DNA of 64,000 nt from Blastocatellia bacterium (lineage in GTDB: Bacteria; Acidobacteriota; Blastocatellia; RBC074), in contig DAOMFR010000019.1 of assembly GCA_035429885.1 (NCBI GenBank), positions 67 through 64,066 of the forward strand, read 5' to 3'. The notes below the pieces were generated by a model. It saw only the letters and a list, made by a program, of their open reading frames with translations. It made no database searches and had not been told where the DNA came from. Of the stretch, positions 7,101 through 52,589 are shown one piece after another. A program made the position numbers and the translations under genes. Position 1 is the stretch's first letter, and each line of letters opens with the position of its first letter.

Positions 7101-9761
7101 ATTTTTGTTTGCCGGTGTGTATTCGATTCTGCCGGCAATGTCGTCGCCCAACTGATTTTCCAGACTGACCCCGCCGGACAATTTCGCCGCCGGGCTTTTG
7201 GCAATCAGCGGGTTGTCGTTGTAAGTAAGCAGCGCCTGCCGCAAATCGTTTTGATACGTCATGCGATACGGAGCCAAGGCTTTCGGGAACACAAGTTTCA
7301 ATCGTTCGTCCAGATCAGAAGTCGCTGTTTCGGCGCGCAGTTCCGCCATGTTCAAACAGCGCCACGGAGCCTGCCCCGTCGTCTGGCTTTGCCGCATCAA
7401 CAAGCCAATCCCGGCAATGCGCCGCAAAAAGTCCTGTGCGTCATCGTCGTTCCCTTCGGCGAATTTGGCCAAACGATCTACCTGAATTGTCACGCCCTGG
7501 GAAATTTCCGTCGGCGAGCTATCGCCTTCTTCGGTTGGATTGTCCAGCATCGGCAGCAGCAACGGTGCAAATCCCTCAGCAAACGCATCCAGACTGGTGT
7601 TCATCCAGGTTTCAATTGTTGTTTTCACTGGCGGCACCGGCACCGCCCCAGATGGCAGCGGCAGGTAATCAGCGTATTCCGCAATGCCGCTGATTCGCTT
7701 GCTGAAATAATCTTTGAGTTTCTGTTTCAGGTTGTCCGTCAACTGTTTGAACTCGTTCCCAGCGGAATGCTTGATGTTGATCAAATCGCTCCAAATACGG
7801 CCGATGTTTCCTGACGCCAGTCGCTGGCGAAGCTGGATCGCAGGCAGAATGCTGTCTTTAAGCGAAGTCGAAAATCGGCTGTAGAACGTTTGCGCCTTGT
7901 TGAAACTCCATCTATCCCAGTCGCTGATGGCAGCAGCAATTTTGTCCGCGGGCGCAACCAACACCGAAGGCTGCGTGAAGCTCAACGGGCCGACGCCAAC
8001 ATTCAGATCAACCACGATGGCAGCGGCATCAAGTTTGGATGTTGTCGCCACCTGCACGTCACTTGCGCCAATTGGCTGCCAAACATTGGCGCCTGTGCCG
8101 AATTGCGCTGTGACAAACCATGACTTTTCAGCTTGCCGCGCGATTTTCAGGCGCAAATGATGATCGGAAGAAATAGGAAATTCGGCCTGTGCCTTTTCAA
8201 TCTCGCTGGCATCAAGCAAGCGAATTTTCAGAGTGTCCGCATTGCGGGAAACTTCAAGCGCGATCTGGCTGGCCGGACTGAGTTTTGGATCCGTCACGCG
8301 GAAGAAGTATTTATCTCCTGAAACCAGTCTAGCGGAATTCAGGTTGGCCAGGGTCAACACCCATGCTCGCCCGTCATTCAAGCCGAGCAATCCGGTGTCG
8401 CCTTTGCCCGGACGAAGGCTTTGGAAGTAACTGGCTTGGGCCGAAGTGATGGTAGTTTTTGTCACGGAGCCGGTTTTGTTCGCAGCCAGATTCCATTGCG
8501 TCAACAAAAAATTTCGCAGGTTGTTTTCATCGGCCAGGGCGCTTTGAATCGCCTCCAATTCCCCCAACTCATCATCCAACCGGTCGCGTCGCCGAAACTC
8601 GGCAGGCTGGCGGATTGCGGCGGTGGCTTTGACTGCCGGGATGCTTTCCACCAGCTTTCGCCAGTCTTCATATGTTTGAGTTCGGTTGTAAAACTCCAGC
8701 GCTCCGCGCATTGAAAGCCGAAACGATTCCATCAAGCCATTGCTTTCCAATCCGACATCACGACAACTGGACAACAGATAACCGGCCACGTCCGCGCCAT
8801 CTGCGCCAGGCTGCACGCCGGTTCCGGCCAGATCACGTGTCGTCGCAACTACAGACTGGCGGAAAAACCTCAACACGGACATGTAAGCCTGATCGTCGAA
8901 ATTGGCCGGATTGCTGATCGCGCCGATATTTTTGCGAAATGCGTCAATTTGCCGCTGCGCCAGGTCGAAAATACCGGCAATCTTGCTTTCCAGCCGCACA
9001 GTCCAATCAGAGCCAAACCATTGCTGTTGCCCGGATTCAAAACTGTTCTTGATCCAGTAACTGCCGAAATCAATGTAGCTGGTAGCAGAGGGATCTGGCG
9101 TCAAAACGACTTTCCACGGCACAACGTACGCCTGCACGCTGTGCGTGCCCGGTTCATAACCCCAAATGTTGATGTCGGTGACCCCGGATCGGGAAATTGT
9201 GCTGCTGGGGCCGGTGGCTTTCGGAACGATGTCGCCCAGAGTTTCGCCTTTGAATTCCGGAACCGCCAAAATGGAATCGCCAGCGGTCAGCAGCGCCGCC
9301 GGCAATTTGAAACATAGCGACAGATTCAATTGCTGGGGCGCAGGTGCAGGCAATGTGGAAACATATCCCAGCAAGTTGCGGAAATAACGGCGGCTTTCCT
9401 GTTCTTCCTCAACGCCCACTGTCGGACGCCAGACAAAGGCTTCGCTGCCGTCCGCAGGATTTGCCCAGATGTCCTTGGCTTCATCCAGAATGGCGTTTTT
9501 GATTGGCGCGCCATCAAACTCACCGTCGTTGACGGGATAACTGACAACATTGGCCAGTTCCAGCGTGGCAGAGTTCTTTCGCCAAATGTGAATGCGTTCC
9601 ACATTTCCCCACAACCAGGGCATTAACAAGCTCAAGGCCTCGGCCTGCGTTCCAGCCAGTTGATCGAACGATGCCGACAGATTCAACCCGAAATATGCCT
9701 GATCCGTTTCATACGCCGGCCATAGCCGCTCCAGATGACAAATGATCGCTACGTTAGCCAT
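4119..9761 (-). CDS. Giant hypothetical protein, 1880 aa, no recognised domain
   Basis: Uninterrupted 5.6-kb ORF. SD-like AAGGAAGG sits about 6-8 nt upstream of the ATG at 9761. The gene starts 36 nt after the stop of the upstream 2179-aa ORF. By eye there is no signal peptide, TM segment, Walker A, HExxH or adhesin-type tandem repeat. Confidence 0.85.
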   Translation of the reverse strand: MANVAIICHLERLWPAYETDQAYFGLNLSASFDQLAGTQAEALSLLMPWLWGNVERIHIWRKNSATLELANVVSYPVNDGEFDGAPIKNAILDEAKDIWANPADGSEAFVWRPTVGVEEEQESRRYFRNLLGYVSTLPAPAPQQLNLSLCFKLPAALLTAGDSILAVPEFKGETLGDIVPKATGPSSTISRSGVTDINIWGYEPGTHSVQAYVVPWKVVLTPDPSATSYIDFGSYWIKNSFESGQQQWFGSDWTVRLESKIAGIFDLAQRQIDAFRKNIGAISNPANFDDQAYMSVLRFFRQSVVATTRDLAGTGVQPGADGADVAGYLLSSCRDVGLESNGLMESFRLSMRGALEFYNRTQTYEDWRKLVESIPAVKATAAIRQPAEFRRRDRLDDELGELEAIQSALADENNLRNFLLTQWNLAANKTGSVTKTTITSAQASYFQSLRPGKGDTGLLGLNDGRAWVLTLANLNSARLVSGDKYFFRVTDPKLSPASQIALEVSRNADTLKIRLLDASEIEKAQAEFPISSDHHLRLKIARQAEKSWFVTAQFGTGANVWQPIGASDVQVATTSKLDAAAIVVDLNVGVGPLSFTQPSVLVAPADKIAAAISDWDRWSFNKAQTFYSRFSTSLKDSILPAIQLRQRLASGNIGRIWSDLINIKHSAGNEFKQLTDNLKQKLKDYFSKRISGIAEYADYLPLPSGAVPVPPVKTTIETWMNTSLDAFAEGFAPLLLPMLDNPTEEGDSSPTEISQGVTIQVDRLAKFAEGNDDDAQDFLRRIAGIGLLMRQSQTTGQAPWRCLNMAELRAETATSDLDERLKLVFPKALAPYRMTYQNDLRQALLTYNDNPLIAKSPAAKLSGGVSLENQLGDDIAGRIEYTPANKNTNWAKLPPLKFGQTYELAAFVIGNSGALPKELSDGHPAKLRDWTETFQPDFSSAVSSPVRRVKYLRRVRVGKPRFSVAGEIGQIGKLRIQLPRIPDQVFPLAGELKLNPASISGIPLPDPSEDMTFKGADPVVNAGAQNLPLLLLPSLKTTNPTEFSFGLRKPATDLATWNRWLAKDQDAETGPDKPTEEKRKQVWADYHRKAPKDPSRASDDNRDDISLDDPAAENFFVAELVMMRPTAAVAKTVKVDIPPPQATGGIGLAQSLPTTVLCKHGEVSEITATGSKLVVTIGKGEVAELRIYVPVKAQWFDDDNLRRFHKLPPPTKGAWQKFENTYYLFSPLRMLLEGATTDLPTPEEVWNAIRPVAVGGRLTVHLDRGAAGSANKFDYVATVELRRQLWRWQGRPLREFPARTNDKQPEINKLPLNTDSPATNAFLWDAEGFGDRGDDDYMLTSASLSTLDNSPLLFEDDRTQDRRALYYRFAVRANTRYSGLLEILQKNAPEFVDSSRNATSPGTTDPQNPRDNWKRYLVNCRWQEEVPKPQVKFVVPLTEAASTTEANKARLPGLLVVLNESWYEVGGLAETLVAEMQEADSPTGGAKLPEFGPDPILTGDAWTGGKVKMNVSQPLGHTFDTDADAPLFVASSCLLSFPELPKNLEDKWSFAKLVFKRNLIVNGNPAALESKPTDPYWVQLLPDFSEFGQNFDYNSLRLRRSASNPNFVEILTNGVPATLPADPPLAGFNQFSRWLVLTQVIRDMRGRRDQERYVGLYKLGAQGICQPLDEQTRIGNDWKLRGRIIEVQYRVEALGNLRSEANYYSGAKLDGGRQWAVTLNSIKANFTTSGGYSVSLNQSANGAKLVSIAALHNANGSVTLQLKNSGGTVVQETTIPSAQVSAPYAVRLVLTKSGNSWEVSAQHRSATDWVQFGTTTLNALPEVAINVALSQTASKAQELSYISPSLTSEPWDHLFPLELPGTTPEDAKARIVRVSRPIEM

Positions 9762-21845: not shown

Positions 21846-23297
<1,452 letters not shown>

Positions 23298-23302
23298 AGC
23301 AA

Positions 23303-24076
23303 TTACTCCAATTCAAATTCAGCCACGACAGGCACGTGGTCAGAAGGTTGAGGCAATGCGCGGGGAGCTTTGTCCACCCAAACCGCAGTGCAAAGTTCGG
23401 AAAGCGGCTCTGTCGCCCACAGATGATCAATTCTGAGGCCCTTGTTTTTGGGAAACGCTCCGCCACGGTAATCCCACCAGGTGTACACGCCGGAATCGTC
23501 GTGATGCTGGCGGAACACGTCCACCAATCCCCAATCTTCAATTTTCTGCAACGCGGCGCGCTCGGCATCACTGCACAAAATTTGTCCCGCCCAAAGTTTG
23601 GGATCGTGAACATCGCGATCTTCTGGCGCGATGTTGAAATCCCCGCAGAGCACTACATCCTGTTTCGGATCGCAGCATTCATCAAAAAACTTTCGCAGGT
23701 TGCCGAGCCAATTCAGTTTGTAGCTGTATTTTTCCGAACCGACTTCGGACCCATTCGGGATGTAAACGTTGACGATTTTGACGCCGTTGATGGTTGTCGC
23801 CAGCAATCTGCGTTGTGGGTCTTCCGCGTCGCCTAAGAAGCCTTTTTGCACGTCGGACGGTTCGGCCAGGGAAAGTGTGGCGACGCCGTTGTAGGTTTGC
23901 TGGCCAAAGATTTCAGCTCGATAGCCGATTTCCCGAAAGGCGTCGGCAGGGAATTTGTCTTCCTTGCATTTGATTTCCTGCAAACACAGCGCGTCCGGGC
24001 GGTTGGATTTCAGCCAGTCCAGCACGTGGGGCAAGCGCACAGCAATTGAATTGATATTCCAGGTTGCAATTTTCAT
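23303..24076 (-). CDS. xthA: Exodeoxyribonuclease III
   Basis: [10 protein letters not shown]...LCLQEIK... and C-terminal SDHVPV are typical of the ExoIII/APE1 family. Length is 257 aa. Confidence 0.9.
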
Positions 24077-24165
24077 AAGCGTAAAAGAACGGCCTTGGTT
24101 GATTCGGCCACATTTGAACTTTACTCAATCCGCCGTCTGGCGAAAAGGCTCGATGGCCTGAATCC

Positions 24166-25851
24166 TTACCCGATTTTGATGCCGATGCTTTCCAGAAACT
24201 TGGTCGGTTTTTCTCCACCGATCAGCGCGAAAATGTAATCGTTCTGGAGTCTTGCTGTTTCTTCAGCGGTTTTCGGGTCGCGTTCGCGGGCGCTCATCAG
24301 AGCGACTTCAGTCGGCGTAACTTCTTTGATGGTTTGTCCGAAATACGCCGTGATTTTTCCTTCGTCAATGCAATCGTAGACCAGCATTTTGTTGCCGAGC
24401 TTTAAATCGCTTTTGAGATTGCTGCGGATAATCAGCGAGACCGTGTTGTCACGCCAACCAGTGATTTGCGTGCCGTCATCGGAACGATAGGCGGCCAGAT
24501 CCACGGCGGCTTCAATGGCGGAATTGCCTGCGCCGACAACCACGATGTGTTTGCCGCTGTAATCGTTCGGATCCGTCAGTTTGTATTTGACCTTGTCGTC
24601 TTCAAAGGCAGGGGTCTGTTTAACCTTGGGAATGTATTTCTGGCCGCAATTGTGACAGAAGCGGTTATCGCTCAATCGCTTTTCGCCGCATTTGTTACAG
24701 AACGCAGGCATGATCATTTCCGTGGCGGTGACTACAATCTTGGAATCTTCGCCGGGCACGCCCAATTTCATCGGAGTTCCGCGATTGCCGATGGCCAAAA
24801 TTACACGACGAACGCTGTACTGCATTTTGCGTTTGGTTTTGTCCTGATCGGTTTCGACGATGAAGCTGTCGCCCACAGGTTTGACGCTTTTGCAGCTCTC
24901 GTATTCGTTGATGGTCAGGCCGTTGGTGCGAATCGTTTCCATCCAGGAACCAATCATCACTTCTTTGGTGGCGCCTGCGCCGGACAAATTGATTCCGCCA
25001 TTGACGGGTTTTTCCACCGGATTGAAATACACATATTTGCCGGCTTGATAAGTTTGCTGGATGGTGCCGACGACTTGATCCTGTTCGATGGCGATGTATT
25101 TCAACCCGCGTTGTTTGGCCAGCGCTGTCGCGGACAAGCCCGCCGGGCCAATGCCAACGATGGCGACGTCGTAATCGCAATCGCCGTTTTTCCCTGCGTG
25201 CTTCAAATCTTCGACAATGCAATCAACCACTGCGCCGCCTTCGTTAATGGCATTTTTGATCAGTGGAACCCCGGACACATCTCCGATCAGGTACACGCCA
25301 GGCACGTTGGTCAGGAATTGCTGGTCGCGCTTGGGAACCTTGCGTTCGGGAATCTGTTTGGTGGTATTGATGACGATGCAGGATTTCGGCACGGTCGGGC
25401 ATTCGACCTGACAACTGGTGTCTTCGGTGCATTGTTCGATGGCAATCGGAGTGGCTTTGCCGTTGACGATGGCCAGCACGTCATGCGGGCAGGCATCCAC
25501 GCAAGCATGGCAGCCAATGCATGTCGCCGTGTTGATGACCGGGTGAGGATACGGCGGGCCGTCCGGATCAAGCGCCGCTCCGAGCGATTGCGGCACCACA
25601 ACGGTTTTGGCTTTTGTGTCCGAAGGTTGCATTTCCGCTTCGGCCATAGCTTCGATGACTCGCTTGCGTTCAAAAAACGTGTCTGTCGCGACCAACGCTA
25701 ATCCGACAACTCCCGCAAACAGAATCAATCCCAGCCAGCCCATCGGCGGCACGGCTCCGAAACTGACGGTAAAGCGCGAAACAAACGCAGCCACCAGCAC
25801 CCCTGCCAACAAAAACAATGTAATGACGAGTTGCGATCTTTTCATAGCCAA
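24166..25851 (-). CDS. Membrane-anchored ferredoxin-flavoprotein (2 TM, 4Fe-4S ferredoxin domain, FAD/NAD(P)-binding pyridine nucleotide-disulfide oxidoreductase-like, inserted zinc ribbon)
   Basis: Two N-terminal hydrophobic helices. CIGCHACVDACP plus CTEDTSCQVECP. Dinucleotide folds DVAIVGIGPAGL and HIVVVGAGNSAIE. A CNKCG...CHNCG ribbon sits between them. Confidence 0.75.
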   Translation of the reverse strand: MAMKRSQLVITLFLLAGVLVAAFVSRFTVSFGAVPPMGWLGLILFAGVVGLALVATDTFFERKRVIEAMAEAEMQPSDTKAKTVVVPQSLGAALDPDGPPYPHPVINTATCIGCHACVDACPHDVLAIVNGKATPIAIEQCTEDTSCQVECPTVPKSCIVINTTKQIPERKVPKRDQQFLTNVPGVYLIGDVSGVPLIKNAINEGGAVVDCIVEDLKHAGKNGDCDYDVAIVGIGPAGLSATALAKQRGLKYIAIEQDQVVGTIQQTYQAGKYVYFNPVEKPVNGGINLSGAGATKEVMIGSWMETIRTNGLTINEYESCKSVKPVGDSFIVETDQDKTKRKMQYSVRRVILAIGNRGTPMKLGVPGEDSKIVVTATEMIMPAFCNKCGEKRLSDNRFCHNCGQKYIPKVKQTPAFEDDKVKYKLTDPNDYSGKHIVVVGAGNSAIEAAVDLAAYRSDDGTQITGWRDNTVSLIIRSNLKSDLKLGNKMLVYDCIDEGKITAYFGQTIKEVTPTEVALMSARERDPKTAEETARLQNDYIFALIGGEKPTKFLESIGIKIG

Positions 25852-25860
25852 ACAAAATAA

Positions 25861-26763
25861 TTAGTTGAAAAACGGAAACAGGATTTTCAGCTCAGCCTTG
25901 TCCGGCCTGCGCCCGTATTCGCAGATTTCAAACGCTTCGGCGTATTGCACTTTTGCGGCGCGATCTTTGCCATACCAATCTTCCAGGTTTTTGCGGTATT
26001 TGTCGGCAACGTTTTTCTGGCGATCCACGAAGCGTTGGCGAACAACTGCCCAGCGTTCTTTCTGCTTCGCGGGGTCTGTTGTCAGCAACTCTTGGTAACC
26101 GTTCGCGCCGCCTTCATAAAACTGCGACACCATGCCGAGCAATCCATCCAGTTTCTTTTCCATCACGGAATCAACATCCACCACCACGTCGGCCTGAAAT
26201 GGATTCGGTTTTTCAAAGCGGTCGGAAAAATACATAAACACGGGATTGTTCGTCAGATGCGGAACGTCCGGCGCGTAATTCGGAACCGTGACCATGTACG
26301 CCGCGTCTTGCACCAAAACTCCGGCGTAACGGTGATCGGGATGATAATCGTTGGGACGGTGGCTAATGACGATATCGGCTTTCCATTGGCGGATCAGTTT
26401 GGTGATGGCTTTGCGATTTTCCAGCGTCGGCAGCAATTCGCCATCGTGGTTATCCAGAATTTCCACAGTCGTGCCTAGAATCTTGGCGGCGCGTTCGACT
26501 TCGACTTTGCGGCGTCGAGCCAGCGGGCCACCCGCTTCGCTAAAATGCCCAATGTCGCCATTAGTGACGGCAACCAGTTTGACAGCGTGGCCTTTGGCCG
26601 CCCACAACGCCGCCGTTCCCGAAACTCCAATTTCCGCATCATCCGGGTGTGCGCCGAAACAGATGATTCTCAGTTGACGTTGCGCGGAATTGGCGGGAAG
26701 CAGGCTGTAAGCAGTCGCCAACAGACAATAGGTGGCGAGTAATAAGCAAAGTTTGCGAATCAT
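25861..26763 (-). CDS. PIG-L/LmbE family deacetylase with a signal peptide
   Basis: AHPDDAEIG motif and TNGD..H. I prefer the ATG at 26763 (MIRKLCLLLATYCLLA, GGAG 9-12 nt upstream) over the longer ORF-track start at 26868. Confidence 0.75.
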   Translation of the reverse strand: MIRKLCLLLATYCLLATAYSLLPANSAQRQLRIICFGAHPDDAEIGVSGTAALWAAKGHAVKLVAVTNGDIGHFSEAGGPLARRRKVEVERAAKILGTTVEILDNHDGELLPTLENRKAITKLIRQWKADIVISHRPNDYHPDHRYAGVLVQDAAYMVTVPNYAPDVPHLTNNPVFMYFSDRFEKPNPFQADVVVDVDSVMEKKLDGLLGMVSQFYEGGANGYQELLTTDPAKQKERWAVVRQRFVDRQKNVADKYRKNLEDWYGKDRAAKVQYAEAFEICEYGRRPDKAELKILFPFFN

Positions 26764-26900
26764 GGTTTTTCTCCACGGAAAGTATCGGGGCCGAATCCAT
26801 TTGCCCCTGTTTTTCGAATCAATTGAGATCGGTCGTGCTTCCCACAAATCGTGGTTTACGACATTCAATCTCTCAGTCCCTGCATCCTGCTATTTCTTCA

Positions 26901-28391
26901 TCATTTTTCCATCCGCCGCAAACTGGCGCGGAGTTCTTTTTCTTCGCCGTGCTGGGCGTGGCAAGAGACGCATTTGGGGCCACCAGCTTGAGTATTAGTC
27001 ATGAATTGTCTGCCGCGATCAGCAAAGAAGGCTTTGGCACTTTCATTCTGGGCGTTGGCCGTAGCCGGATCGGTTCCGTGGCACGCCGCGCAGGATTCAC
27101 GCACGCCTTGAGTTAAGGCTGTGTCTTCAAACCCCGCCGTATGGCAATCGGTGCAATTGCTGCGACCTTGTTGCCGGCCTGCCAGATGAAGCAGATGGAA
27201 ACTGTCTTTCGTTTTGTATAGCGCCGGTGTTCCGGGAAGCTCTCTGCGCGACCATTCAGCTTGAGAAATGGAAAACACGATTTCCGACCAGCGGCCATTT
27301 ACGACAGGATAGCCAAATGAAGCTCCGCCGTGAGGGGATTTCAACTCTTTGCCAGCGAAACTATTGCCATCGCGATGGCATCCCGTGCAAGCGGTATTGG
27401 CGACCAAAGCCGGGCGAAAATCTCGTCCCAAATGTTCCGTGTGGCAAGCGGTGCAAGTCAGCCCAGCTTTCATGTGTTTGTCGGATACTTCTGAATGAAA
27501 CGCCGAAGTCGAGTGGCAGGACGCGCAGTTTTGATTGAGCGACGCTTTGACCGAATGACACGTTGTGCAAGCTGACGAAGCAGGAATTCGAGCGATTCCT
27601 GGCGAAATCGAAAAGTCCTTTCGGGCATGTGCTGCCGAGAGCGCGCCAGGGGAATAAGCATCCTTGAAGATAAAAATCGCGGCCACCGACAGAACCGTCA
27701 CGATCAGCGTTGCCCATCCAAACAACGCGCGTGGCCAGGGGCGTTGCAAATCGCGAGTTGGAACCCAATTGAACTGTGCTCTGCCCAGACGTTTTTTGAC
27801 CTTCGGTTTGAGCGGGGAATCCGTCGCCAGCTTTCCGTCTTCGCGTTTGCGCTTGTCCCAAAAGATTTTCAGCGCCTGGGCATCCACAGGCTTCAACATT
27901 CCAGTCAGCATTCCGGTGCCGGACAAACGCCGAGTGCCTTTGGGCGTGACTTTGTCGCGTTGCAACTTGGCCAGAATTCCCGGATCAATGCGCACGGTCT
28001 TGCCTTGATCCGGAGGCAACTGCATCCCGGTTCCGGTGCTTGGCGCGGACGCCTCAACGGGCAAAGGCTTGACGCTCATTTCCACGTCGATCATCAGCCC
28101 ATCGCCTACATATCGCGGGAACAAAAAGAACGGGCCAATCTGAACAACGTCGCCGTCAGCGATCGGCGTTTGATCCACCAATTCGCCATTCAGCGTCGTG
28201 CCATTGGCTTCCGACAAGTTGAAAATCCAGTAATCGCCATTGAGCTCTTTGATTCCTGCGTGAGTGCGCGACACCGACGGATGGTTCAACACCAGGTCGC
28301 TGCCCGCCAATCGGCCAATCGTCAGCCCTTCGCTTTCTACCAGCGCAGGATCAAGACTAAGGTCTTTTCGGATGATGACGAACTTGTTCAT
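26901..28391 (-). CDS. FHA domain - single TM - heptaheme c-type cytochrome fusion protein
   Basis: N-terminal FHA (LTIGRLAGSDLVLNHPSVSRTHAGI...NGTTLNGELV...GDVVQIG). TM helix ALFGWATLIVTVLSVAAIFIF is preceded by basic residues. The C-terminal half has seven CxxCH motifs (CTTCH, CASCH, CTACH, CTGCH, CTDCH, CAACH, CVSCH). Confidence 0.8.
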   Translation of the reverse strand: MNKFVIIRKDLSLDPALVESEGLTIGRLAGSDLVLNHPSVSRTHAGIKELNGDYWIFNLSEANGTTLNGELVDQTPIADGDVVQIGPFFLFPRYVGDGLMIDVEMSVKPLPVEASAPSTGTGMQLPPDQGKTVRIDPGILAKLQRDKVTPKGTRRLSGTGMLTGMLKPVDAQALKIFWDKRKREDGKLATDSPLKPKVKKRLGRAQFNWVPTRDLQRPWPRALFGWATLIVTVLSVAAIFIFKDAYSPGALSAAHARKDFSISPGIARIPASSACTTCHSVKASLNQNCASCHSTSAFHSEVSDKHMKAGLTCTACHTEHLGRDFRPALVANTACTGCHRDGNSFAGKELKSPHGGASFGYPVVNGRWSEIVFSISQAEWSRRELPGTPALYKTKDSFHLLHLAGRQQGRSNCTDCHTAGFEDTALTQGVRESCAACHGTDPATANAQNESAKAFFADRGRQFMTNTQAGGPKCVSCHAQHGEEKELRASLRRMEK

Positions 28392-28405
28392 AAGTTGGTG
28401 GTCGG

Positions 28406-30844
28406 CTACCTCGCCAGAAAATAAATCACTTGAATGATGTGGACGATCATCAATGCCAGCATCAGCGACGTGACCAGCACGTGCGGAGCCAGCCAGAGTT
28501 TCAGCAATTGATGGAGATAGATTAAGGCGTCCACTCTGCGTATGGTTGCAGCCATCTCAATGCCTTTGAGTAGTCGTTCGCGTTCGCCGTCAGTCATGCC
28601 TTGGCCAATGGCCGCGAATTCAGTTTTGATATTTGCCAGCATTTCATCCAGCGACTCTCGTCTCAAATATTGGCGCAGCAAAAAACTCAGGGAAATGGTG
28701 CGCGGAACGACTTGCTTCTGGATCGTCAGCCGGACGTTGGGAGTGACTTTGGCCATCAGTTCGCCAAGCTCGTGACTCAACTCCTCGCGGCGGGCGGTCA
28801 GGTCTTCGATCAACAGCGGCTGGCCTTCGATTCGAGTCAGCATTCGCGGAGCTATGAAGTAAATCAAAATGCCGAACAAGCCGGTTAAGATCACAAGGTC
28901 AAACGAGACCATTAACGCCGTAGTCAGCAGGCCGCCGGAATCCGAGCCTCCGTGCAGCAGCAATACGATTCCGGCGATGACGCCCAGATAGCTATGAGCC
29001 AACATCCAGTATCGCAAGGCTCCGGCGCGTTTACGGTAAATCTGCCGTCGAATAGGATAAGCCATCACTCCCGCGATGCCGATCAGCCCAATAGCGCCAG
29101 TCAACCAACGCATGTCCAGCCACGATCCGATCAACGGAGTTTCCAATCCATAACGCATCATTCCGGCCAGCGTCAGCAATGTCAGGATCAACGTGGCAAA
29201 CAAGCCAAAGGCATGCATCAATCGTTTGCCGAAATCTTTATGCGAGGTATGGCGGGCGACGACGTGCGTGGAATCGCGAAAGATCGTGCCTTCAGCTTCT
29301 TTGATTTCAGAAAAGTAAATGTGCGGATCCACTCTCAGCAACGCGCCGGTCGGACAGTTTTCTTCGCAACTGTATGCCTTGCGTTTGGTGCCCGGAGGGT
29401 TAAGCGGCGTGTTTTGGCAGAGATTGCACTTTACAGCCAGCAAATCTTCCGTTTGTTCAACGGCCGGTGGCAGCGGGGATGGTTTCAGGTCGAACCAGCC
29501 TTGGCTGGTTAAGGCCGGAGCCGGTTTTCGACTCACCATCGAAATTGCATTGTACGGGCATTGCGTCGCGCAATCGCCACAACCGATGCAGCTTTTGGGA
29601 TCAATGTCCACTTGACCACCTGGGAAGCGGCCAATTGCTCCCGTCGGGCAACCTGTCAAACATTCAGGGTCCTGACAGTGCATGCAAACCGAAGGCGAAA
29701 GCAAACTTTGGAAACTGGATTTCGGTTCTACTTTGACCGGGCGTTCAACGTGTATGCCTCTGCGCAGCAATCGCGATTGCCCATGCACCTGGTGACACGC
29801 CATGGAGCAATTGCCGCAACGCACACACATCTCCATATCCATCACCAGCAAATTTGTGCCATCAACCAGCCCGGTTTCGATCAACGATTCTTGAGCAATG
29901 GCGACCGGCAACGGTTGCCGGCCTTCGTTGGGATTGTCCGGCGCGGCCATTCCGGTAAACGCCAGCAACAGGATTTCACGCAATTCCGGATGTTTGCGCA
30001 GATCGGCCAACGAAATTTCCAGCACTTCGGCGCGCCCCATCAATGTGCAAGTCTGTTCCCAATTCCCATCGCGAGTGATCGCTTCGACGCCGAAACTATG
30101 CGACGGGCCGAAATAAGCTTCCGTGGCTTTGGCGTTCCAATTTCGCGGCTTGATTTCTTCGGGTGTCAGTTGGCGCGTGACGGTTCGCGGAGTGACTTTG
30201 GCCCAGCCGGATTTCAGCACGAACAGATTTTTCATCGGATCGCCCGCGCGAAAGAGCACGTGGTTTTTGCCAAAGACTTTGAATTGCGAGATGGCTTCAA
30301 GCTGGCTAACAGCTTCTTTGCTGAGTTGAGTTGCCGCGGCGATGTCCTGAATGGTGGTTGCGCGTCCGTTGCGACGATACGTGGAATCCAGCACTTCGCC
30401 GAATTTGGGAAGTTTGCGCAATAACCGAAGCGCAGGCCGCTGAATTTCCAACACCTGAACCGGTTTGTCTTTGGGCGCGCGAATGGTTGCTGACCGCTGG
30501 ACGCCGGCCAGCACAGACATTTCGCCGAACTGCACTCCGGCGGGAATCTCTGCCACCTTGTTTTGGCCATTGTCGAAGAGCACATCGGCGGTACCGCTGA
30601 CGACGATGAAAAATGAATTGCCTCCCCATTCGCCTTCGCGGACAATTTCTTCGCCCGGCATATAGGTCAGCAAGCGAACGTATGGGCCGACTTTCTTGCC
30701 GTTGTAATTGCGTCCATAAACAATCACTTCCAGGTCAAGTTCGTAATCGTAATGGCCGTCGTGCTGAGATGTCAGATCGGCGATGGCGCCAATGCTTTCA
30801 ATTGCAGCCAGCACGTCTTTGTGCTTAAGAGTCTCTTCAGGCAT
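28406..30844 (-). CDS. cNMP-binding (x2) / four-cluster 4Fe-4S ferredoxin / 5-TM putative di-heme b membrane protein
   Basis: First cNMP domain has an intact phosphate-binding cassette (FGEMSVLAGVQRSATIRA). The second is degenerate. Four Cys groups follow a DmsB/NrfC-like pattern (CVRCGNCSMAC, CMHCQDPECLTGCP, CIGCGDCATQCP, CNLCQ...CEENCP). The C-terminal part has five hydrophobic helices with H617-x13-H631 and H788-x13-H802. Confidence 0.75.
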   Translation of the reverse strand: MPEETLKHKDVLAAIESIGAIADLTSQHDGHYDYELDLEVIVYGRNYNGKKVGPYVRLLTYMPGEEIVREGEWGGNSFFIVVSGTADVLFDNGQNKVAEIPAGVQFGEMSVLAGVQRSATIRAPKDKPVQVLEIQRPALRLLRKLPKFGEVLDSTYRRNGRATTIQDIAAATQLSKEAVSQLEAISQFKVFGKNHVLFRAGDPMKNLFVLKSGWAKVTPRTVTRQLTPEEIKPRNWNAKATEAYFGPSHSFGVEAITRDGNWEQTCTLMGRAEVLEISLADLRKHPELREILLLAFTGMAAPDNPNEGRQPLPVAIAQESLIETGLVDGTNLLVMDMEMCVRCGNCSMACHQVHGQSRLLRRGIHVERPVKVEPKSSFQSLLSPSVCMHCQDPECLTGCPTGAIGRFPGGQVDIDPKSCIGCGDCATQCPYNAISMVSRKPAPALTSQGWFDLKPSPLPPAVEQTEDLLAVKCNLCQNTPLNPPGTKRKAYSCEENCPTGALLRVDPHIYFSEIKEAEGTIFRDSTHVVARHTSHKDFGKRLMHAFGLFATLILTLLTLAGMMRYGLETPLIGSWLDMRWLTGAIGLIGIAGVMAYPIRRQIYRKRAGALRYWMLAHSYLGVIAGIVLLLHGGSDSGGLLTTALMVSFDLVILTGLFGILIYFIAPRMLTRIEGQPLLIEDLTARREELSHELGELMAKVTPNVRLTIQKQVVPRTISLSFLLRQYLRRESLDEMLANIKTEFAAIGQGMTDGERERLLKGIEMAATIRRVDALIYLHQLLKLWLAPHVLVTSLMLALMIVHIIQVIYFLAR

Positions 30845-31096
30845 AGGGTTTTTTGATACTGCCAGTCTTCAGGATGCGCGTGGATTTAATTGAAACAACG
30901 ATGGCTCATGTTTAGAGCCTTCAACCGGGTTAGTCAATCGAATAGTCCGGCTAGAATTGCAAAGACAACAGAAAGTTGTTGCCTTTATTAAAACTCTTGT
31001 GTGATAGTCCACTCGTTCTCAGCTTCCGATCTTTTCCCCCAGAAAATCAGTCAACCAAAAGTTCAAACTCGGCGAACGCCGAAGAGGAGAAAATCC

Positions 31097-32485
31097 ATGC
31101 CAAGCAAAAAAGCTAAAACCAAATCGTCCACCAAATTCGCGCAAATTCCCGCTCGAACTCACGCAAAAGAAGACCGAAAAGAGTTCATGCCCGGCACGCT
31201 TGTCGTGCGTTGCAAACCGGACGTCGTCAACAACGTCCCAGATGTCGGCGAGGCGAGCGTTGCTTCCGTGTCATCGTTCCGGTTACCCGAAGTCGTTGAA
31301 AGCCCATTTGATTTTTTGCGTCAAAACGGATTGCTGCGTGAAGTCGTTCCGGTATTTTCACGAATGATGGCCGGACGCGCTCTGGGAGTTGCGCCTGCCT
31401 CCACCGCCGCTTCATTCGCCTTAAGCGTCCGCGATTCGGAAGAAGATGATTTGAAAGGGGTGAACGTGCTTCGACTGGCCAAGCACGCCGATTTGAAAAA
31501 GATTGAAAAAGAGCTCAACAACACGCCGGGCATTGAATACGCGCATCGTTTTCCGGCACGTTGGATGAATGCGGCGACGGCGAAAATGAGCACTACCGAC
31601 GAATTTCTGGCTCAGCAATGGGGGCTGAAATCCATTGGCTGGACTGCACTGGACGCACTGCCCAACGCGGCTCAAGTCAATGTCGCTGTGCTGGATACCG
31701 GAATTGACATGACTCATCCCGAACTGAAAAACATCGTCGCTTCTTACATTCATGACGGAGCCGGTTCGACGGACATCATCGGGCACGGAACTCACGTTGC
31801 CGGAATCATCGCAGCGCAAATTAACAACCGAATTGGCATCGCGGGAATCTGCAAGCCAAATTTGATGATCTGGAAAATCTTTGGTGACACGCCTGATCCA
31901 AAGGACGGTGAAATTTACGTGGACCCGGTCATGTACCAGCGCGCTTTGAACGCTGCCCGGCAAGCCCGCGTTCACGTCGTTAATTTGAGCATCGGCGGCA
32001 CATTCCGCGACCGCACAGAAGAAATGTTGCTGAATCGGTTGATGAATTCCGGCACTCTGGTTGTCGCTGCGATGGGCAATGAATTCGAGGACGGCAATCC
32101 GAAAGAATATCCGGGAGGCTTTCCGGGCGTTTTCGCTGTTGGCGCGACGACCAAAGCCAATGTGCGGGCATCGTTTTCCAACACGGGCAGCCATATAGAC
32201 ATTGCTGCGCCCGGACATCATATCCTTTCGACCTTGCCGCTTCAACCTTCGCTGATGCGCAAAGCCGACGAAACCAATTACGCCAGCTGGAGCGGGACTT
32301 CGATGGCGACGCCTCACGTTACGGCGGCCGCTGCCTTGGTCTTTGCCAAAAATCCAGGCTTTACTGCCAAACAGGTCGGCGACAAGCTGAAGGCCACCGC
32401 CACCAAGCTGGCTGCGATGAAAGGCAAAAAGACGACCAACGAATTTGGTGCCGGTTTACTGAATGTGCTGGCGGCGCTATCCTAA
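31097..32485 (+). CDS. S8 family (subtilisin-like) serine peptidase without an obvious signal peptide
   Basis: Catalytic triad contexts VAVLDTGID, HGTHVAGII and GTSMATPHV. The ATG at 31097 is preceded by GAGGAG. The ORF track begins at an upstream non-ATG codon at 31001. Confidence 0.85.
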   Translation: MPSKKAKTKSSTKFAQIPARTHAKEDRKEFMPGTLVVRCKPDVVNNVPDVGEASVASVSSFRLPEVVESPFDFLRQNGLLREVVPVFSRMMAGRALGVAPASTAASFALSVRDSEEDDLKGVNVLRLAKHADLKKIEKELNNTPGIEYAHRFPARWMNAATAKMSTTDEFLAQQWGLKSIGWTALDALPNAAQVNVAVLDTGIDMTHPELKNIVASYIHDGAGSTDIIGHGTHVAGIIAAQINNRIGIAGICKPNLMIWKIFGDTPDPKDGEIYVDPVMYQRALNAARQARVHVVNLSIGGTFRDRTEEMLLNRLMNSGTLVVAAMGNEFEDGNPKEYPGGFPGVFAVGATTKANVRASFSNTGSHIDIAAPGHHILSTLPLQPSLMRKADETNYASWSGTSMATPHVTAAAALVFAKNPGFTAKQVGDKLKATATKLAAMKGKKTTNEFGAGLLNVLAALS

Positions 32486-47048: not shown

Positions 47049-48200
47049 ATGCATAACAGGATTCTCGTTGTAGATGACGAACCCGACCTCGAAATTCTGA
47101 TTACCCAACGATTTCGCAAGCGCATTCGCGCCGAAGAACTCAGCTTTCTTTTTGCCAGCAATGGCGAAGAAGCACTCGCCCAATTGCAATCTGATCATCA
47201 TGTTGATGTCGTGTTGACCGACATCAACATGCCTGTGATGGATGGCCTGACACTGTTGTCGCGCTTGCGTGAGGCGCATCCGTTATTGCGTTCGGTGATT
47301 GTCTCAGCGTATGGCGATATGCCGAACATCCGCACGGCGCTCAACCGCGGCGCCTTTGATTTCATCACCAAGCCGATTGATTTTCAGGATTTGGAAATTA
47401 CGCTCGACCGCGCGATTGCCGAATCCATCGAGCGCAAACAAGCGGCGCAAGATCGTGACCGCTTGCTTAAACTCAGCCGCGAACTTGAACTCGCCCGCAA
47501 CATTCAATCGGCGCTTGTCCCGCATACATTCCCGCAACACGAACGCCTGTCGGTGTACGGCTCGATGATTCCGGCGGCGGAAGTCGGCGGCGATCTGTTT
47601 GATTGTTTTCTGCTTGATGACCACCGGCTGGCCTTCACCATCGGCGATGTGTCGGGCAAAGGCATTGCGGCGGCGCTGTTTATGGCCGTCAGCCGCACAG
47701 TTTTGCGCGTAGCTGCCAAGAAAGGCTTGTCACCGCAAGACTGCCTGCTGGAAGCGCACCAGTTTCTGCACGGCGAGCGCCGCGCTACGTCGCATTTCGT
47801 CACCTGTTTTTACGGCATTCTCGATCTGGCGACCGGGCAACTGGAATACAGCCGCGCCGGACACAATCCGCCGTATCTGGTGCGTGGCGATCAGGTGCAA
47901 ACGCTGGATGCGGCGAGCGGATTGCCGCTGGGTATGCTGCGGCGCGTGAACTATGACACGGCGACGGTGCAGCTTGTGGCGGGCGATACGCTGTTGATGT
48001 TTACCGACGGCATCACCGAAGCGATGAATCCTCGCCAGGAAGAATATGGCGAAGATCGGCTGGTGCAATTGCTGAGCGAGCGAGCGTCGTCATTGAGCGT
48101 CGAGGAATTAGTGCAGGCGGTGACGCACGAAGCGACCGCGTTCGCCGAGGGCGCACCGGCTTCGGATGACATGACCGTGCTGGGCGTGCGGTATCTATGA
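47049..48200 (+). CDS. Response regulator receiver fused to a PP2C/SpoIIE phosphatase
   Basis: REC (ILVVDDEPD...VLTDINMPVMDG...KP). PP2C motifs (GGDLFD, IGDVSGKGIAAALFMA, FTDGITEA, DDMTVL). Confidence 0.9.
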   Translation: MHNRILVVDDEPDLEILITQRFRKRIRAEELSFLFASNGEEALAQLQSDHHVDVVLTDINMPVMDGLTLLSRLREAHPLLRSVIVSAYGDMPNIRTALNRGAFDFITKPIDFQDLEITLDRAIAESIERKQAAQDRDRLLKLSRELELARNIQSALVPHTFPQHERLSVYGSMIPAAEVGGDLFDCFLLDDHRLAFTIGDVSGKGIAAALFMAVSRTVLRVAAKKGLSPQDCLLEAHQFLHGERRATSHFVTCFYGILDLATGQLEYSRAGHNPPYLVRGDQVQTLDAASGLPLGMLRRVNYDTATVQLVAGDTLLMFTDGITEAMNPRQEEYGEDRLVQLLSERASSLSVEELVQAVTHEATAFAEGAPASDDMTVLGVRYL

Positions 48201-48201
48201 T

Positions 48202-48306
48202 CTGGGTACGCCCGCGCCCTCGCGGGCTGCCTTCGCCGTAGGGCGTCCGCGTATCCACAAAAAGTCTTTGCCGCACGCCTGCCCGCGAGGGCGCGGGCGC
48301 ACCCAG
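48202..48306. repeat. Long imperfect hairpin (26-nt arms) between a signalling-gene pair
   Basis: CTGGGTACGCCCGCGCCCTCGCGGGC (48202-48227) pairs with GCCCGCGAGGGCGCGGGCGCACCCAG (48281-48306), 25 of 26 complementary. Each arm also contains a CCCGCG/CGCGGG mini-hairpin. Confidence 0.8.
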
Positions 48307-48315
48307 TGAGAAACG

Positions 48316-51300: not shown

Positions 51301-52170
51301 CTCGCGGCTTATACCTCGATTGCGCTCGACAACGCCGATGCTTACCACCACCTCAAGGCGACACAAGACCAGTTAGTGGTGCAGGAAAAACTGGCTTCGC
51401 TCGGCGCCTTGACCGCAGGCATCGCGCACGAGATCAAGAATCCGCTGAATTTCGTCAACAACTTCGCCGACCTGTCGGTCGAATTGATGGACGAATTGCG
51501 CGAAGACATCACCAAACACAAAGCCGCGATTCCGGACAAAGATTTCGAGAATATCGAAGACCTGCTCGATGATCTGACAGCCAATGCCAAAAAGATCAAC
51601 GAACACGGCAGGCGCGCCGACGGCATTGTGCGCAGCATGCTGCTGCATTCGCGCGGACAGGCGGGGGAACGCCAACCGACGGACATCAACGCGATGCTGG
51701 AAGAGTATGTGAACCTGACGTATCACGGCATGCGCGCGCAGGATTCCAGCTTCAACGTCACCATCGAACGCGCACTGGCAAACGATGCCGGTTCGGTCGA
51801 AGCGATTCCGCAAGACCTGAGCCGCGTGTTTCTGAATCTGCTGAACAACGCTTGTTATGCCGTGAATGATAAGGCCAAACGCAACGGCGCGGGCTTTGTG
51901 CCGAAGCTGCGCGTCGAATCACGCAATCTCGGTGATGCGGTGGAAGTGCGCATTCGCGACAACGGCATGGGCATTCCGCCCGAAGTGCGCGAGAAAATTT
52001 TCAACCCGTTTTTCACGACGAAGCCGACGGGGCAGGGCACAGGGCTTGGCCTTTCAATCAGTCACGACATCGTCGTGCAACAACACGGCGGGCAACTCGA
52101 AGTGGAAACCGAGCCGGGCGAATACACCGAATTTATCGTGCGCTTGCCGCGCAATGGGAGGAACACGTAA
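48316..52170 (+). CDS. Sensor histidine kinase: periplasmic beta-propeller repeats, Y_Y_Y, TM, GAF, HisKA, HATPase_c
   Basis: Signal peptide and a repeated propeller-type sensor region. Y_Y_Y/TM junction (YRFRVKAKN...[15 protein letters not shown]). H-box [13 protein letters not shown]-box LLNNACYA, G-boxes DNGMGIP and GQGTGLGLS. Confidence 0.9.
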
Positions 52171-52532
52171 TGAAAGTGATGGTCGTAGACGACGAAGCCG
52201 ATGTCCGAACGCTGTTTGAGCAACGCTTTCGCCGCGAAGTGCGCGACGGCAAGATCGATTTTTGCTTTGCGCTTTCTGGCGAAGAAGCCTTGTCTTTGCT
52301 GGAACACCGTGTCAGCGAGGTTTCCCTGATTCTTTCGGACATCAATATGCCGGGGATGAACGGCCTGGATTTGCTCAAAGCCATCAAGGAAAAACATCGG
52401 CATTTGAAGGTGTATCTGATCACGGCGTATGGCAGCGCGGAATATCAGCAACTGGCGTTGACCTATGGTTGCGATGATTACTTTACCAAACCGCTGGATT
52501 TCGGCGTGCTCAAGGAAAAGCTGCAAGTCTGA
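52170..52532 (+). CDS. Single-domain response regulator (receiver only)
   Basis: The start overlaps the upstream stop by 1 nt (TAATG). VMVVDDEADV...LSDINMPGMNG...TKP. Confidence 0.9.
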   Translation: MKVMVVDDEADVRTLFEQRFRREVRDGKIDFCFALSGEEALSLLEHRVSEVSLILSDINMPGMNGLDLLKAIKEKHRHLKVYLITAYGSAEYQQLALTYGCDDYFTKPLDFGVLKEKLQV

Positions 52533-52589
52533 ATCCCGCAAGCGATGATTCTGCGCTCTCTAAGCGGCACTCAATAGTTGAGGAACGAG

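Follow-up and report, generated by a model that had tools for sequence, protein, structure and literature searches.

The question raised by this locus is what role is played by a protein that carries a forkhead-associated (FHA) domain at one end and a heptahaem cytochrome c at the other, with a membrane helix in between. The protein (496 aa) is encoded by gene B, which was located from the ORF list and Pfam domains at 26901..28391 on the minus strand of the window, the 64,000-nucleotide stretch of Blastocatellia DNA analyzed here; the parts of gene B and the neighboring module genes described below lie on the same strand. Its reading frame opens with an ATG that is the earliest possible start in frame in the ORF listing and encodes, from the N to the C terminus, the FHA domain, a linker of about 120 aa, a single transmembrane (TM) helix and seven CxxCH motifs. 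[quoted passage not shown] The preliminary description, which had recognized the same layout, presented it as one polypeptide linking a phospho-signalling reader to an electron carrier; the domains and the predicted topology agree with this, but the protein is not self-contained and, judged from gene order and natural fusions, is the middle subunit of a conserved three-gene redox module, A-B-C. At least 687 homologues of gene B were recovered at E ≤ 1e-3 among the candidates scored, and among the 120 listed nearly all were full length, with both FHA and cytochrome Pfam domains; full-length homologues with the same architecture number in the hundreds, nearly all of them from Blastocatellia (Acidobacteriota). 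Identity within the close set amounts to 73% in the FHA domain, 74% in the juxtamembrane segment and 63% in the cytochrome, and these values, together with the conservation of the haem ligands, point to selection on both halves of the gene. A promoter and terminator scan of positions 23000-31300 gave counts below the shuffled expectation.

The FHA domain (residues 1-105 by Pfam and AF2; 28077..28391) matched PF00498 with 57.4 bits (cut-off 20.7; E = 2e-15) over residues 24-86 and displays the motifs GR (26-27), SRTH (41-44) and NGT..NG (63-69), which bears out the earlier reading of the N-terminal ~100 aa as a canonical FHA domain. The residues of the phosphothreonine (pThr) pocket, G26, R27, S41, H44 and N63, are all canonical and align to those of GarA; the Arg, Ser, His and Asn are the equivalents of R70, S85, H88 and N107 of Rad53 FHA1. 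Among 70 homologues, G26 was retained in all 70, R27 and S41 in 63 each, and H44 and N63 in 57 each, and the degeneracy of the pocket that had been raised as a ground for rejecting pThr reading was not seen on alignment in the window's clade. The domain was modelled by AF2 with a pLDDT of ~94, and the best 50 matches of the full-length model in a fold search were all FHA domains. The nearest solved structures were GarA/OdhI (33-36% identity), followed by Rv1747 FHA-2, EmbR and FhaA, and in the window's clade the domain is predicted to be a pThr reader closest to the GarA/OdhI and Rv1747 type. The pocket is altered elsewhere: N63 is changed to Ser in the sister clade Pyrinomonadaceae, and replacements of the Asn, His or Ser occur in several distant relatives, so that pThr reading cannot extend to the whole family. 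Against Yop-YscD_cpl, B scored 31.7 bits, below the cut-off of 33.2, which is exceeded by two relatives (L051 and P0218).

The linker (residues 106-165; 27897..28076) was delimited by AF2 and column frequencies and is partly disordered, with pLDDT below 50 at residues 109-135. It carries a conserved Thr-rich motif, TPKGTRRLSG-T159-G-M-L162-TG, of which G158-L162 are encoded by nt 27906-27920, and its T-x-x-L element offers a concrete candidate phosphosite. Of 117 sequences whose R-S-N triad is intact, 101 have the motif in the form G[TS]G[LMIV][LIVM], compared with 1 of the 139 that lack an intact triad. The raw Fisher test of this association (p ~1e-52) was discarded as evidence in its own right because the tree holds only ~3 informative events, namely two co-gains and one sequential co-loss; the association is largely clade-structured, and the motif has been lost several times in lineages that keep an intact pocket. 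The basic juxtamembrane segment that follows (residues 166-222; 27726..27896, defined by conservation) has the sequence ALKIFWDKRKRE..GK...GKAQFNW-x-P-T212-x-D214-L215, and its family hallmark, W209..L215, is encoded by nt 27747-27767. W209, T212, D214 and L215 are invariant among 70 sequences, and W-x-x-T-x-D-L holds in most of 256, at least three of which carry Ser at the Thr position. This segment, which in the close set is conserved as strongly as the FHA domain, also retains its hallmark in cytochrome-less and two-FHA relatives.

The single TM helix (residues 223-241; 27669..27725) is predicted from hydropathy and AF2 to act as an N-in signal anchor, with a Kyte-Doolittle peak of 2.37, an AF2 helix at 220-241 (pLDDT ~88) and a charge (K+R minus D+E) of ~+10 in residues 180-222 vs ~+3 in residues 243-285. 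One helix with a positive N side, together with the in-out-in fusions described below, agrees with the topology proposed earlier, and the FHA domain is inferred to be cytoplasmic and the haems extracytoplasmic. Obligatory cleavage by signal peptidase after the helix (A-H-A at 254-256) was considered and appears unlikely, since H255 is conserved and probably binds a haem, and the existence of natural fusions with a membrane anchor on both sides speaks against it. The periplasmic domain (residues 243-496; 26904..27665, from motifs and conservation) has its CxxCH motifs at residues 275, 289, 313, 335, 413, 434 and 474 and conserved distal His at 255, 306, 320, 354, 399, 402 and 481. The seven motifs are invariant in 70 homologues down to 30% identity, a range over which the seven distal His are conserved as well, and, because seven conserved distal His accompany seven CxxCH, seven bis-His haems are predicted. 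By our own arithmetic, ~0.0005 CxxCH would be expected by chance per 250 residues (Cys ~1%, His ~2%), and three or more occur in only 22 of the genome's 15,889 ORFs with a length of 100 aa or above. Scores of 52.4 bits against Cytochrom_c3_2 (PF14537; cut-off 25) and 33.9 bits against Cytochrome_C7 (PF14522; cut-off 24.8) were obtained, as well as a weak HmcA match far below the NCBIfam cut-off, and no match to the NapC/NirT/CymA family (Cytochrom_NNT, PF03264) was found at E ≤ 0.01 among the Pfam hits. The score against the DmsE/MtrA family (TIGR03508) was 25.9 bits, with a cut-off of 192.2; B has seven haems and is membrane-anchored, whereas DmsE/MtrA proteins have ten and are soluble in the periplasm. 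A profile of the haem part retrieved the PDB chains 6r2q_A (a 333-aa multihaem chain, E = 1.8e-11; a remote similarity, at profile level only), 6i5b (E = 5.6e-10), 6qvm and NrfB, and the cytochrome part is most like electron-wire cytochromes (6r2q_A, 6i5b, NrfB), unlike enzymes. Modelled by itself with AF2 from a 38-sequence alignment, the haem domain gave a poor structure (pLDDT 47.6) that was unfit for a fold search, and the haem part was placed by its sequence profile. Cytochrome c maturation genes (PF01578) are present in the genome, and its multihaem ORFs, at least 22 in number, are possible partners of B.

Gene A (812 aa; 28406..30844, assigned with Pfam) lies 14 nt upstream of B and combines a 5-TM domain with four [4Fe-4S] motifs and a pair of cNMP-binding domains; 16 Cys, and the His pairs H617/H631 and H788/H802 (H-x13-H) of the 5-TM domain, are conserved in 37 homologues. 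Its ferredoxin region gave sub-threshold DsrO/HmcB/NrfC-type NCBIfam matches, far below the cut-offs, and no ferric-reductase match to A was found in Pfam. Gene C (561 aa; 24166..25851, assigned with Pfam and NCBIfam) encodes an FAD/NAD(P) oxidoreductase that resembles TrxR and YpdA and contains an inserted Zn ribbon, together with two TM helices and two [4Fe-4S] motifs; eight Cys and the Zn ribbon are conserved and a conserved redox-active CxxC is absent. The gene for a PIG-L family deacetylase between B and C (25861..26868, minus strand; Pfam PIG-L, E = 1.3e-26) occurs only in the closest clade of loci, the slot being elsewhere empty or filled by another gene, and is a lineage-specific passenger outside the module core. 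The module is present in single copy in this genome, as judged by a paralogue check. The order A-B-(0-1 insert)-C was found in all loci of the L001-L044 set with enough flank, except L035, which is also the only locus with enough flank in which gene C is not downstream of B; gene A adjoins B in every case. The same order recurs in the Pyrinomonadaceae-type locus L047. In a locus of a 'Deltaproteobacteria' MAG (L049), an A-type gene adjoins a B-type gene, and its B homologue (P0218) aligns colinearly with residues 6-445 of B (E = 1e-24), so that the gene B family crosses phyla. Locus L047 additionally contains several multihaem cytochromes and an MtrB/PioB-like gene.

The natural fusions found include three types: FHA-TM-haems-TM-Fer4-FAD, haems joined to the 5-TM domain, and a haem-free FHA-Fer4-FAD. 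The first type, in which B and C form a single chain with FHA, cytochrome, Fer4 and Pyr_redox domains, is represented by P0129, P0130, P0131, P0137, P0139, P0140, P0141, P0142 and P0151, as well as by L050, L051 and L052; in the last three, each from a different genome examined, the A gene lies directly upstream of the fusion. The second is seen in P0249, where the 5-TM domain of A continues into a cytochrome of the B type within one chain (48% identity, E = 6e-78). The numbers of TM helices in the fusions are those expected for an in-out-in topology. These fusions tie A, B and C together and support the in-out-in arrangement, and they constitute strong guilt-by-association evidence for both subunit composition and topology. 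In the third type (P0146, P0155, P0169 and P0184), the FHA domain and linker are fused to the flavoprotein with no cytochrome, which suggests that the FHA domain probably acts for the flavoprotein or the complex as a whole and not for the haems in particular, and the haems of B may not be the target of FHA regulation. The B+C fused form was also observed in genomes of the same class, and in locus L045, which contains the fused P0130, no A gene was found within 7 kb.

The preliminary description had noted that no kinase adjoins gene B, which is true for the window, and had pointed to another FHA protein at 39-650, now identified with E = 3e-17, and to two PP2C-domain regulators, which proved to be response-regulator/SpoIIE(PP2C) proteins at 47049 and 57652. 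The genome-wide screen for Hanks-type kinases that it proposed returned ~70 kinase domains. When five of the genome's own kinase domains were compared by BLAST with all ORFs of 49 related loci (618 kb), a kinase was found near gene B in only one of them (L045), with ~6 expected from the genome density. Genetic linkage of a kinase to gene B was rejected, as 48 of the 49 loci are without one, and a kinase or phosphatase conserved near gene B was not found in these 618 kb.

The A-B-C module probably moves electrons between NAD(P)H in the cytoplasm and the periplasm, subject to control by signalling, along a path suggested by cofactor motifs, synteny and fusions. Electrons would enter from NAD(P)H (or ferredoxin) at the FAD and two [4Fe-4S] clusters of C, pass to the four [4Fe-4S] clusters of A and on to two bis-His haems b predicted in its 5-TM domain, and leave through the seven bis-His haems c of B for a periplasmic or outer acceptor. 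Outward flow would be favored by thermodynamics and by the membrane potential, while C resembles reversible TrxR-type ferredoxin:NAD(P) reductases. The N-terminal 220 residues of B would form its cytoplasmic half, with a GarA/OdhI-like FHA domain, a flexible Thr-rich linker and a basic juxtamembrane segment. The FHA domain would bind a pThr produced by a Hanks kinase, one of the ~70 in the genome, all of them unlinked. The leading candidate for the site is T159-G-M-L (pT-x-x-L) in B's own linker, as in GarA or Rv1747, with a site on A or C as the alternative; capture of the pThr would act as a switch on the conduit or on its assembly, alongside a cyclic-nucleotide input through A. On balance, we lean towards B being the periplasm-facing haem-wire subunit of a quinone-independent three-protein conduit, with the FHA domain as a regulatory or assembly handle. 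The fully specified version, in which a Hanks kinase phosphorylates T159, the FHA domain of B captures this residue in cis or between protomers, and the assembly of a wire of ~16 cofactors from NAD(P)H to the periplasm, or the electron flow through it, is thereby switched, with independent cAMP/cGMP control through A, is put forward tentatively, as a proposal with the chances rather against it.

FHA folds are also known as structural docking modules, as in T3SS YscD and EssC, and GarA binds its enzyme targets phospho-independently. The FHA domain of B could likewise hold it against cytoplasmic portions of A or C independently of any kinase, which would fit the 48 loci without a linked kinase or phosphatase, the near-threshold Yop-YscD_cpl score (over the cut-off in L051 and P0218), the persistence of the module in the Pyrinomonadaceae clade and in distant relatives despite replaced pocket Asn, His or Ser, and the direct fusion of FHA to the flavoprotein. 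We regard such a scaffold as rather doubtful, given that the five pocket residues are canonical and conserved in the window's clade, that the nearest FHA relatives are true pThr readers, that the genome encodes ~70 Hanks kinases and that the Thr-containing pT-x-x-L-type linker motif tracks the intact pocket. Haem c sensor domains are known in chemoreceptors, and B also joins a signalling-type domain across the membrane to a cofactor domain, so that the haems might sense a redox state or ligand while the FHA domain recruits or releases phosphoproteins; however, seven wire-like bis-His haems would be excessive for sensing, an enzymatic output domain is absent, and the obligatory partners are electron-transfer proteins that are fused to B in many lineages, which together make this the least probable of the readings considered.

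The conduit favored above might also run inward or reversibly, with periplasmic cytochromes or low-potential donors reducing ferredoxin or NAD(P)+ and B as the entry wire. The transmembrane Hmc, Tmc and Dsr complexes of sulfate reducers work inward and provide a precedent, and C, with no conserved redox-active CxxC, is like the reversible TrxR-type ferredoxin:NAD(P) reductases. Inward flow is nevertheless unlikely, as it would run against the membrane potential with no energy-coupling element visible, the step from NAD(P)H to c-type haems is downhill, and Blastocatellia are mostly aerobic heterotrophs. An inward route, from Fe(II) oxidases through an FHA-nonahaem protein to the inside, has been proposed in a preprint on Ferrigenium, which also suggests for that protein an exchange of electrons with the quinone pool (bioRxiv 10.64898/2026.01.22.701106). 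B could, by the same token, be a stand-alone quinol dehydrogenase or quinone reductase of the NapC/NirT/CymA/NrfH kind, in contact with the quinone pool through its single TM helix and with A and C unrelated or merely regulatory; it has the same gross shape, an N-terminal TM anchor followed by a periplasmic multihaem domain, and the conserved H255 lies only ~13 residues past the helix. This reading appears very improbable, nearly as much so as the sensor, in view of the missing Cytochrom_NNT match at E ≤ 0.01, of the strict synteny and repeated fusion with A- and C-type proteins, which indicate one complex, and of the membrane His-pair domain that A itself brings.

The export of cytoplasmic reducing power independently of the quinone pool, and its control, are poorly understood outside a few model organisms. 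By inference, A-B-C has an unbroken chain of cofactors and two signalling inputs of its own (cNMP and FHA), and it is common in Blastocatellia, abundant soil Acidobacteria, with relatives in other phyla that have been noticed before. If the proposed gating is true, phosphothreonine/FHA control would be seen for the first time in extracytoplasmic electron transfer, and the module would be a bacterial modular counterpart of regulated NADPH oxidases.

Several known systems share parts of this design. In NADPH oxidases and ferric-reductase-domain systems (NOX, FRE, Fre-MsrQ), electrons pass from NAD(P)H to a flavin and through two bis-His haems b across the membrane to an outside acceptor. The same logic is seen in A-B-C, where A has two H-x13-H pairs on TM helices, but here six Fe-S clusters and seven c-type haems would be interposed and several subunits are involved. 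HmcABCDEF, TmcABCD and DsrMKJOP link a multihaem cytochrome c in the periplasm, through a haem-b subunit in the membrane, to Fe-S subunits in the cytoplasm; A-B-C shares this combination of multihaem c, haem b and Fe-S, whereas it adds an NAD(P)-flavoprotein, cNMP-binding and FHA domains and has a different membrane domain. GarA/OdhI and Rv1747 are switched in activity or assembly when their FHA domain captures a pThr of their own tail or linker. These are the closest FHA structures and sequences to B, which has a Thr-rich linker with a T-x-x-L element tracking the intact pocket; they regulate a metabolic enzyme or a transporter, whereas B would belong to an electron conduit. NapC, NirT, CymA and NrfH also combine an N-terminal membrane anchor with a periplasmic multihaem domain, but have four haems and no cytoplasmic domain, compared with seven haems and a 220-aa cytoplasmic N-terminal region in B.

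The combination of FHA and multihaem domains is already in print for Gallionellaceae and is not unprecedented. The 'NHC' of Ferrigenium straubiae unites an FHA domain with a membrane cytochrome of nine haems (bioRxiv 10.64898/2026.01.22.701106, sect. 6.3.2), and a cluster named 'Forkhead-associated protein, 10 CXXCH' was listed in a Gallionellaceae pangenome (mSystems 2023, PMC10734462), with no function established for either. Like B, these proteins have a cytoplasmic FHA domain, one TM helix, a periplasmic multihaem c and no signal peptide, and their neighbors encode a 5-TM protein and a [4Fe-4S] protein, a match made by published description only. They differ in having nine or ten haems rather than seven, in that their 5-TM and Fe-S parts are separate proteins, here fused with two cNMP domains in the 812-aa A, and in that no flavoprotein partner is described, a place taken here by gene C. 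The ptdABCDEFG cluster of marine Proteobacteria, Nitrospirales and Planctomycetes, for which extracellular electron transfer was suggested and no function is established (bioRxiv 10.1101/2023.11.21.568154), differs in its decahaem PtdG, compared with the heptahaem B, in having PtdE and PtdF separate where A joins the corresponding parts, and in containing porin and penta-/tetrahaem genes (PtdA, B and D type), none of which was found in the window operon; no FHA domain is mentioned in that paper, whereas B has one. The parts of ptd that recur in A-B-C are the FAD/NAD(P) oxidoreductase PtdC, PtdE, which binds cNMP and has 4Fe-4S, the membrane protein PtdF, which resembles ferric reductases, and PtdG, a multihaem protein of the periplasm, and all four of these functions are present in A, B and C when the systems are compared by parts list rather than by sequence.

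Gene B, at 26901–28391 on the minus strand, was found to code for 496 aa from the earliest possible start in frame, an ATG separated by 14 nt from the stop codon of the 812-aa gene upstream (A). The encoded protein carries an FHA domain at residues 24–86 (Pfam E = 2e-15, 57.4 bits, cut-off 20.7), together with Cytochrom_c3_2 (52.4 bits) and Cytochrome_C7 (33.9 bits) matches, both above cut-off, and a script located a single hydrophobic segment (residues 223–241) and seven CxxCH motifs (residues 275, 289, 313, 335, 413, 434 and 474). Seven such motifs within 250 residues far exceed chance; of the genome's 15,889 ORFs with 100 aa or more, only 22 contain three or more. The FHA domain, one TM helix and seven CxxCH motifs of the preliminary description were thus borne out; the feature exists and its architecture was read correctly. 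The Pfam scan gave no NapC/NirT match for B, and scores against the NCBIfam models for DmsE, GSU2203 and HmcA were far under their cut-offs. The AF2 model, obtained from a 70-sequence alignment, presented a confident FHA domain (pLDDT ~94), disorder at 109–135, a TM helix at 220–241 and a haem domain of moderate confidence (~70–85). Both sequence and Foldseek comparisons placed the FHA domain nearest to GarA/OdhI, with 33–36% identity, followed by Rv1747 FHA-2, EmbR and FhaA, so that its nearest kin are experimentally established pThr readers. The family profile of the haem part, compared with PDB sequences, was nearest to wire-type multihaem cytochromes, the top match being 6r2q_A (333 aa, E = 1.8e-11), which we take to be MtrA from the Mtr complex; other matches were 6i5b, 6qvm and NrfB. 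The PDB table used labels 6r2q_A 'Cystathionine beta-synthase', which seems wrong, as the chain matches four stretches of the CxxCH profile.

A search of a 5.8-billion-protein collection gave, among the candidates scored, at least 687 homologues of B. Of these, the best 120 are nearly all full length, with both FHA and cytochrome Pfam domains; their most informative name is 'FHA domain-containing protein', and those with a stated source come from Blastocatellia/Acidobacteriota MAGs. In the 70-sequence alignment, which reaches down to 30% identity, the seven CxxCH motifs are invariant, as are H306, H320, H354, H399, H402 and H481, while the conservation of H255 is 90% or higher; the six invariant histidines and H255 would provide one distal ligand for each of seven bis-His haems, with none left over. 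The residues of the phosphopeptide pocket, whose degeneracy would have undermined the preliminary description, are kept in 57–70 of the 70 homologues (G26 in 70, R27 and S41 in 63 each, H44 in 57, otherwise Gln, and N63 in 57). In the close set, identity is 73% for the FHA domain and 74% for the juxtamembrane segment, above the 63% of the haem domain, so that strong selection acts on the cytoplasmic half. The juxtamembrane segment contains a motif, W209-x-P-T212-x-D214-L215, that does not vary among the 70 sequences, mostly takes the form W-x-x-T-x-D-L in a wider set of 256, with Thr replaced by Ser in at least three, and is found again in distant architectural variants.

B occupies the middle position in a conserved three-gene module, A-B-C. 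Gene A (28406–30844, minus strand) codes for two cNMP-binding domains, 16 conserved Cys forming four [4Fe-4S] motifs, and a 5-TM domain with two conserved H-x13-H pairs (H617/H631 and H788/H802). Gene C (24166–25851, minus strand, 561 aa), downstream of B, codes for two TM helices and, with eight conserved Cys, two [4Fe-4S] motifs; its TrxR/YpdA-like FAD/NAD(P) oxidoreductase has a Zn-ribbon insert, and no conserved redox CxxC was found in it. The order A-B-C, with no or one inserted gene before C, was found in 44 related loci wherever the flank suffices, L035 being the sole exception. Judged by identity, A and C are more conserved than B (54%, 59% and 36%, respectively, at locus L044). In the window the inserted gene (25861–26868, minus strand) codes for a PIG-L family deacetylase that has a hydrophobic segment at its N-terminus. 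This gene is limited to the closest clade of loci; in other lineages the position is empty or holds an AAA ATPase (L004). A Pyrinomonadaceae-type clade has the same trio at 36% identity, with several genes for multihaem cytochromes and one MtrB/PioB-like gene around it. In a 'Deltaproteobacteria' MAG, a two-FHA B-type gene, colinear with residues 6–445 of the window protein, adjoins an A-type gene. Records L005, L006, L007, L010, L013, L022, L030 and L039 are titled 'Heliomicrobium', 'Heliobacteriaceae' or 'Clostridia', though coding close homologues of the Blastocatellia module; this looks like MAG taxonomy mislabelling.

Natural fusions link B to both A and C. Among 1.84 billion representatives, 66 clusters at E < 1e-30 were inspected by sequence and Pfam scan, and four kinds of fusion were found: FHA-TM-haems-TM-Fer4-FAD (P0129, P0130, P0131, P0137, P0139, P0140, P0141, P0142 and P0151); FHA-linker-TM-TM-Fer4-FAD without any cytochrome (P0146, P0155, P0169 and P0184); a B-type cytochrome joined to the 5-TM domain of A (P0249; 48% identity over 290 aa, E = 6e-78); and B-type cytochromes with other N-terminal domains. 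The TM counts of these fusions fit an in-out-in path, giving independent support to the predicted topology, in which the one hydrophobic segment of B joins the FHA domain across the membrane to the haems, as initially proposed. The fusions lacking a cytochrome suggest that the FHA/linker module is part of the complex or of the flavoprotein and is not tied to the haems as such. An A homologue (46–56% identity) directly precedes the fused B-C gene in all three genomes examined, and no A gene lies within 7 kb of fused P0130 (L045). One contig of genome G221 (L039 and L050) holds both forms ~14 kb apart: a split three-gene module, with B at 6670–8067, and a two-gene module in which B and C form one protein of 1057 aa. 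At L045:10545–15219, two Pkinase-FGE-sulfatase genes adjoin the fused P0130 gene (FHA-cytochrome-Fer4-FAD) on the opposite strand. P0249 (L048:7001–10834, 1277 aa) consists of an unassigned N-terminal region of ~650 aa, common to P0194 and P0198, followed by the B-type heptahaem domain and the A-type 5-TM domain; its gene directly follows an AAA (MoxR-like) gene and a TIR/iSTAND gene.

The best-supported reading of the module is a transmembrane electron wire. Electrons would pass from NAD(P)H through FAD and two [4Fe-4S] clusters in C to four [4Fe-4S] clusters and two haems b in A, and from there to the seven haems c of B in the periplasm. The PF01578-type maturation genes of the genome make haem attachment feasible. 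Outward flow would be thermodynamically favoured and aided by the membrane potential, and reversible flow is possible. The genome is also rich in multihaem cytochromes, with ORFs of 13, 10, 10, 9 and 8 CxxCH motifs, among others, as possible periplasmic partners of the conduit. Multihaem loci of the genome include C58:16684–19744, C9:62566–63636, C18:42349–46404, C7:19833–21686 and C226:1412–2656; on contig C58 the 13-haem and 9-haem genes are adjacent, and the 10-haem protein on C18 has 1351 aa.

By analogy with its nearest kin, the FHA domain is favoured to act as a GarA/Rv1747-like switch, the main rival being a phospho-independent scaffold. The linker of B carries a conserved T159-G-[M/L]-L motif, i.e., the pT-x-x-L pattern that is a common FHA preference, and 101 of the 117 sequences whose R-S-N pocket triad is intact have this motif, vs. 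1 of the 139 whose triad is not. On the tree, the association comes down to no more than two co-gains plus one sequential co-loss, and the linker motif was lost several times while the pocket stayed intact, so this sequence pattern is a lead for the switch and not proof. In the subclade of P0098, P0109, P0112, P0114, P0116 and P0120, the linker T-G-M-L was lost first and the pocket (N63, R42) became degenerate later, the remainder of the protein being intact. Kinase linkage also bears on the choice between switch and scaffold: a kinase was linked to the module in one of 49 loci (L045) vs. ~6 expected by density, and, in keeping with the reported lack of an adjacent kinase, none of the ~70 Hanks-type kinase domains that a screen of the genome revealed is linked to it. 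The second FHA protein described in the window, at 39–650, is present, and the two PP2C regulators at 47049 and 57652 are both response-regulator/SpoIIE(PP2C) proteins, one also with HisKA. These two regulators belong to a dense signalling cluster (47049–62525, plus strand) with three giant Reg_prop/Y_Y_Y/GAF histidine kinases of 1017–1522 aa, and the cluster showed no conserved linkage to the redox module.

The best view of B is as one subunit of a putative electron conduit that is conserved and bears signalling domains. Functionally, A-B-C resembles the Hmc/Tmc/Dsr transmembrane complexes and the NOX/Fre-MsrQ systems, falling under all their family thresholds. By published description, the combination of FHA and multihaem domains is shared with Gallionellaceae proteins: a pangenome table gives a 'Forkhead-associated protein' with 10 CXXCH in 27 genomes (PMC10734462), and the Ferrigenium 'NHC' is an FHA-TM-nonahaem protein encoded beside a 5-TM protein and a [4Fe-4S] protein, its function being unknown and the FHA-multihaem combination stated as previously unreported (bioRxiv 10.64898/2026.01.22.701106). 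The ptd cluster, with the flavoprotein PtdC, the cNMP/4Fe-4S protein PtdE, the ferric-reductase-like PtdF and the decahaem PtdG, has by description the same parts as A-B-C, with an FHA domain unmentioned (bioRxiv 10.1101/2023.11.21.568154). The A-B-C module is a variant of a type that is beginning to draw notice in the literature, and brings to it a specific, testable hypothesis of phospho-regulation.
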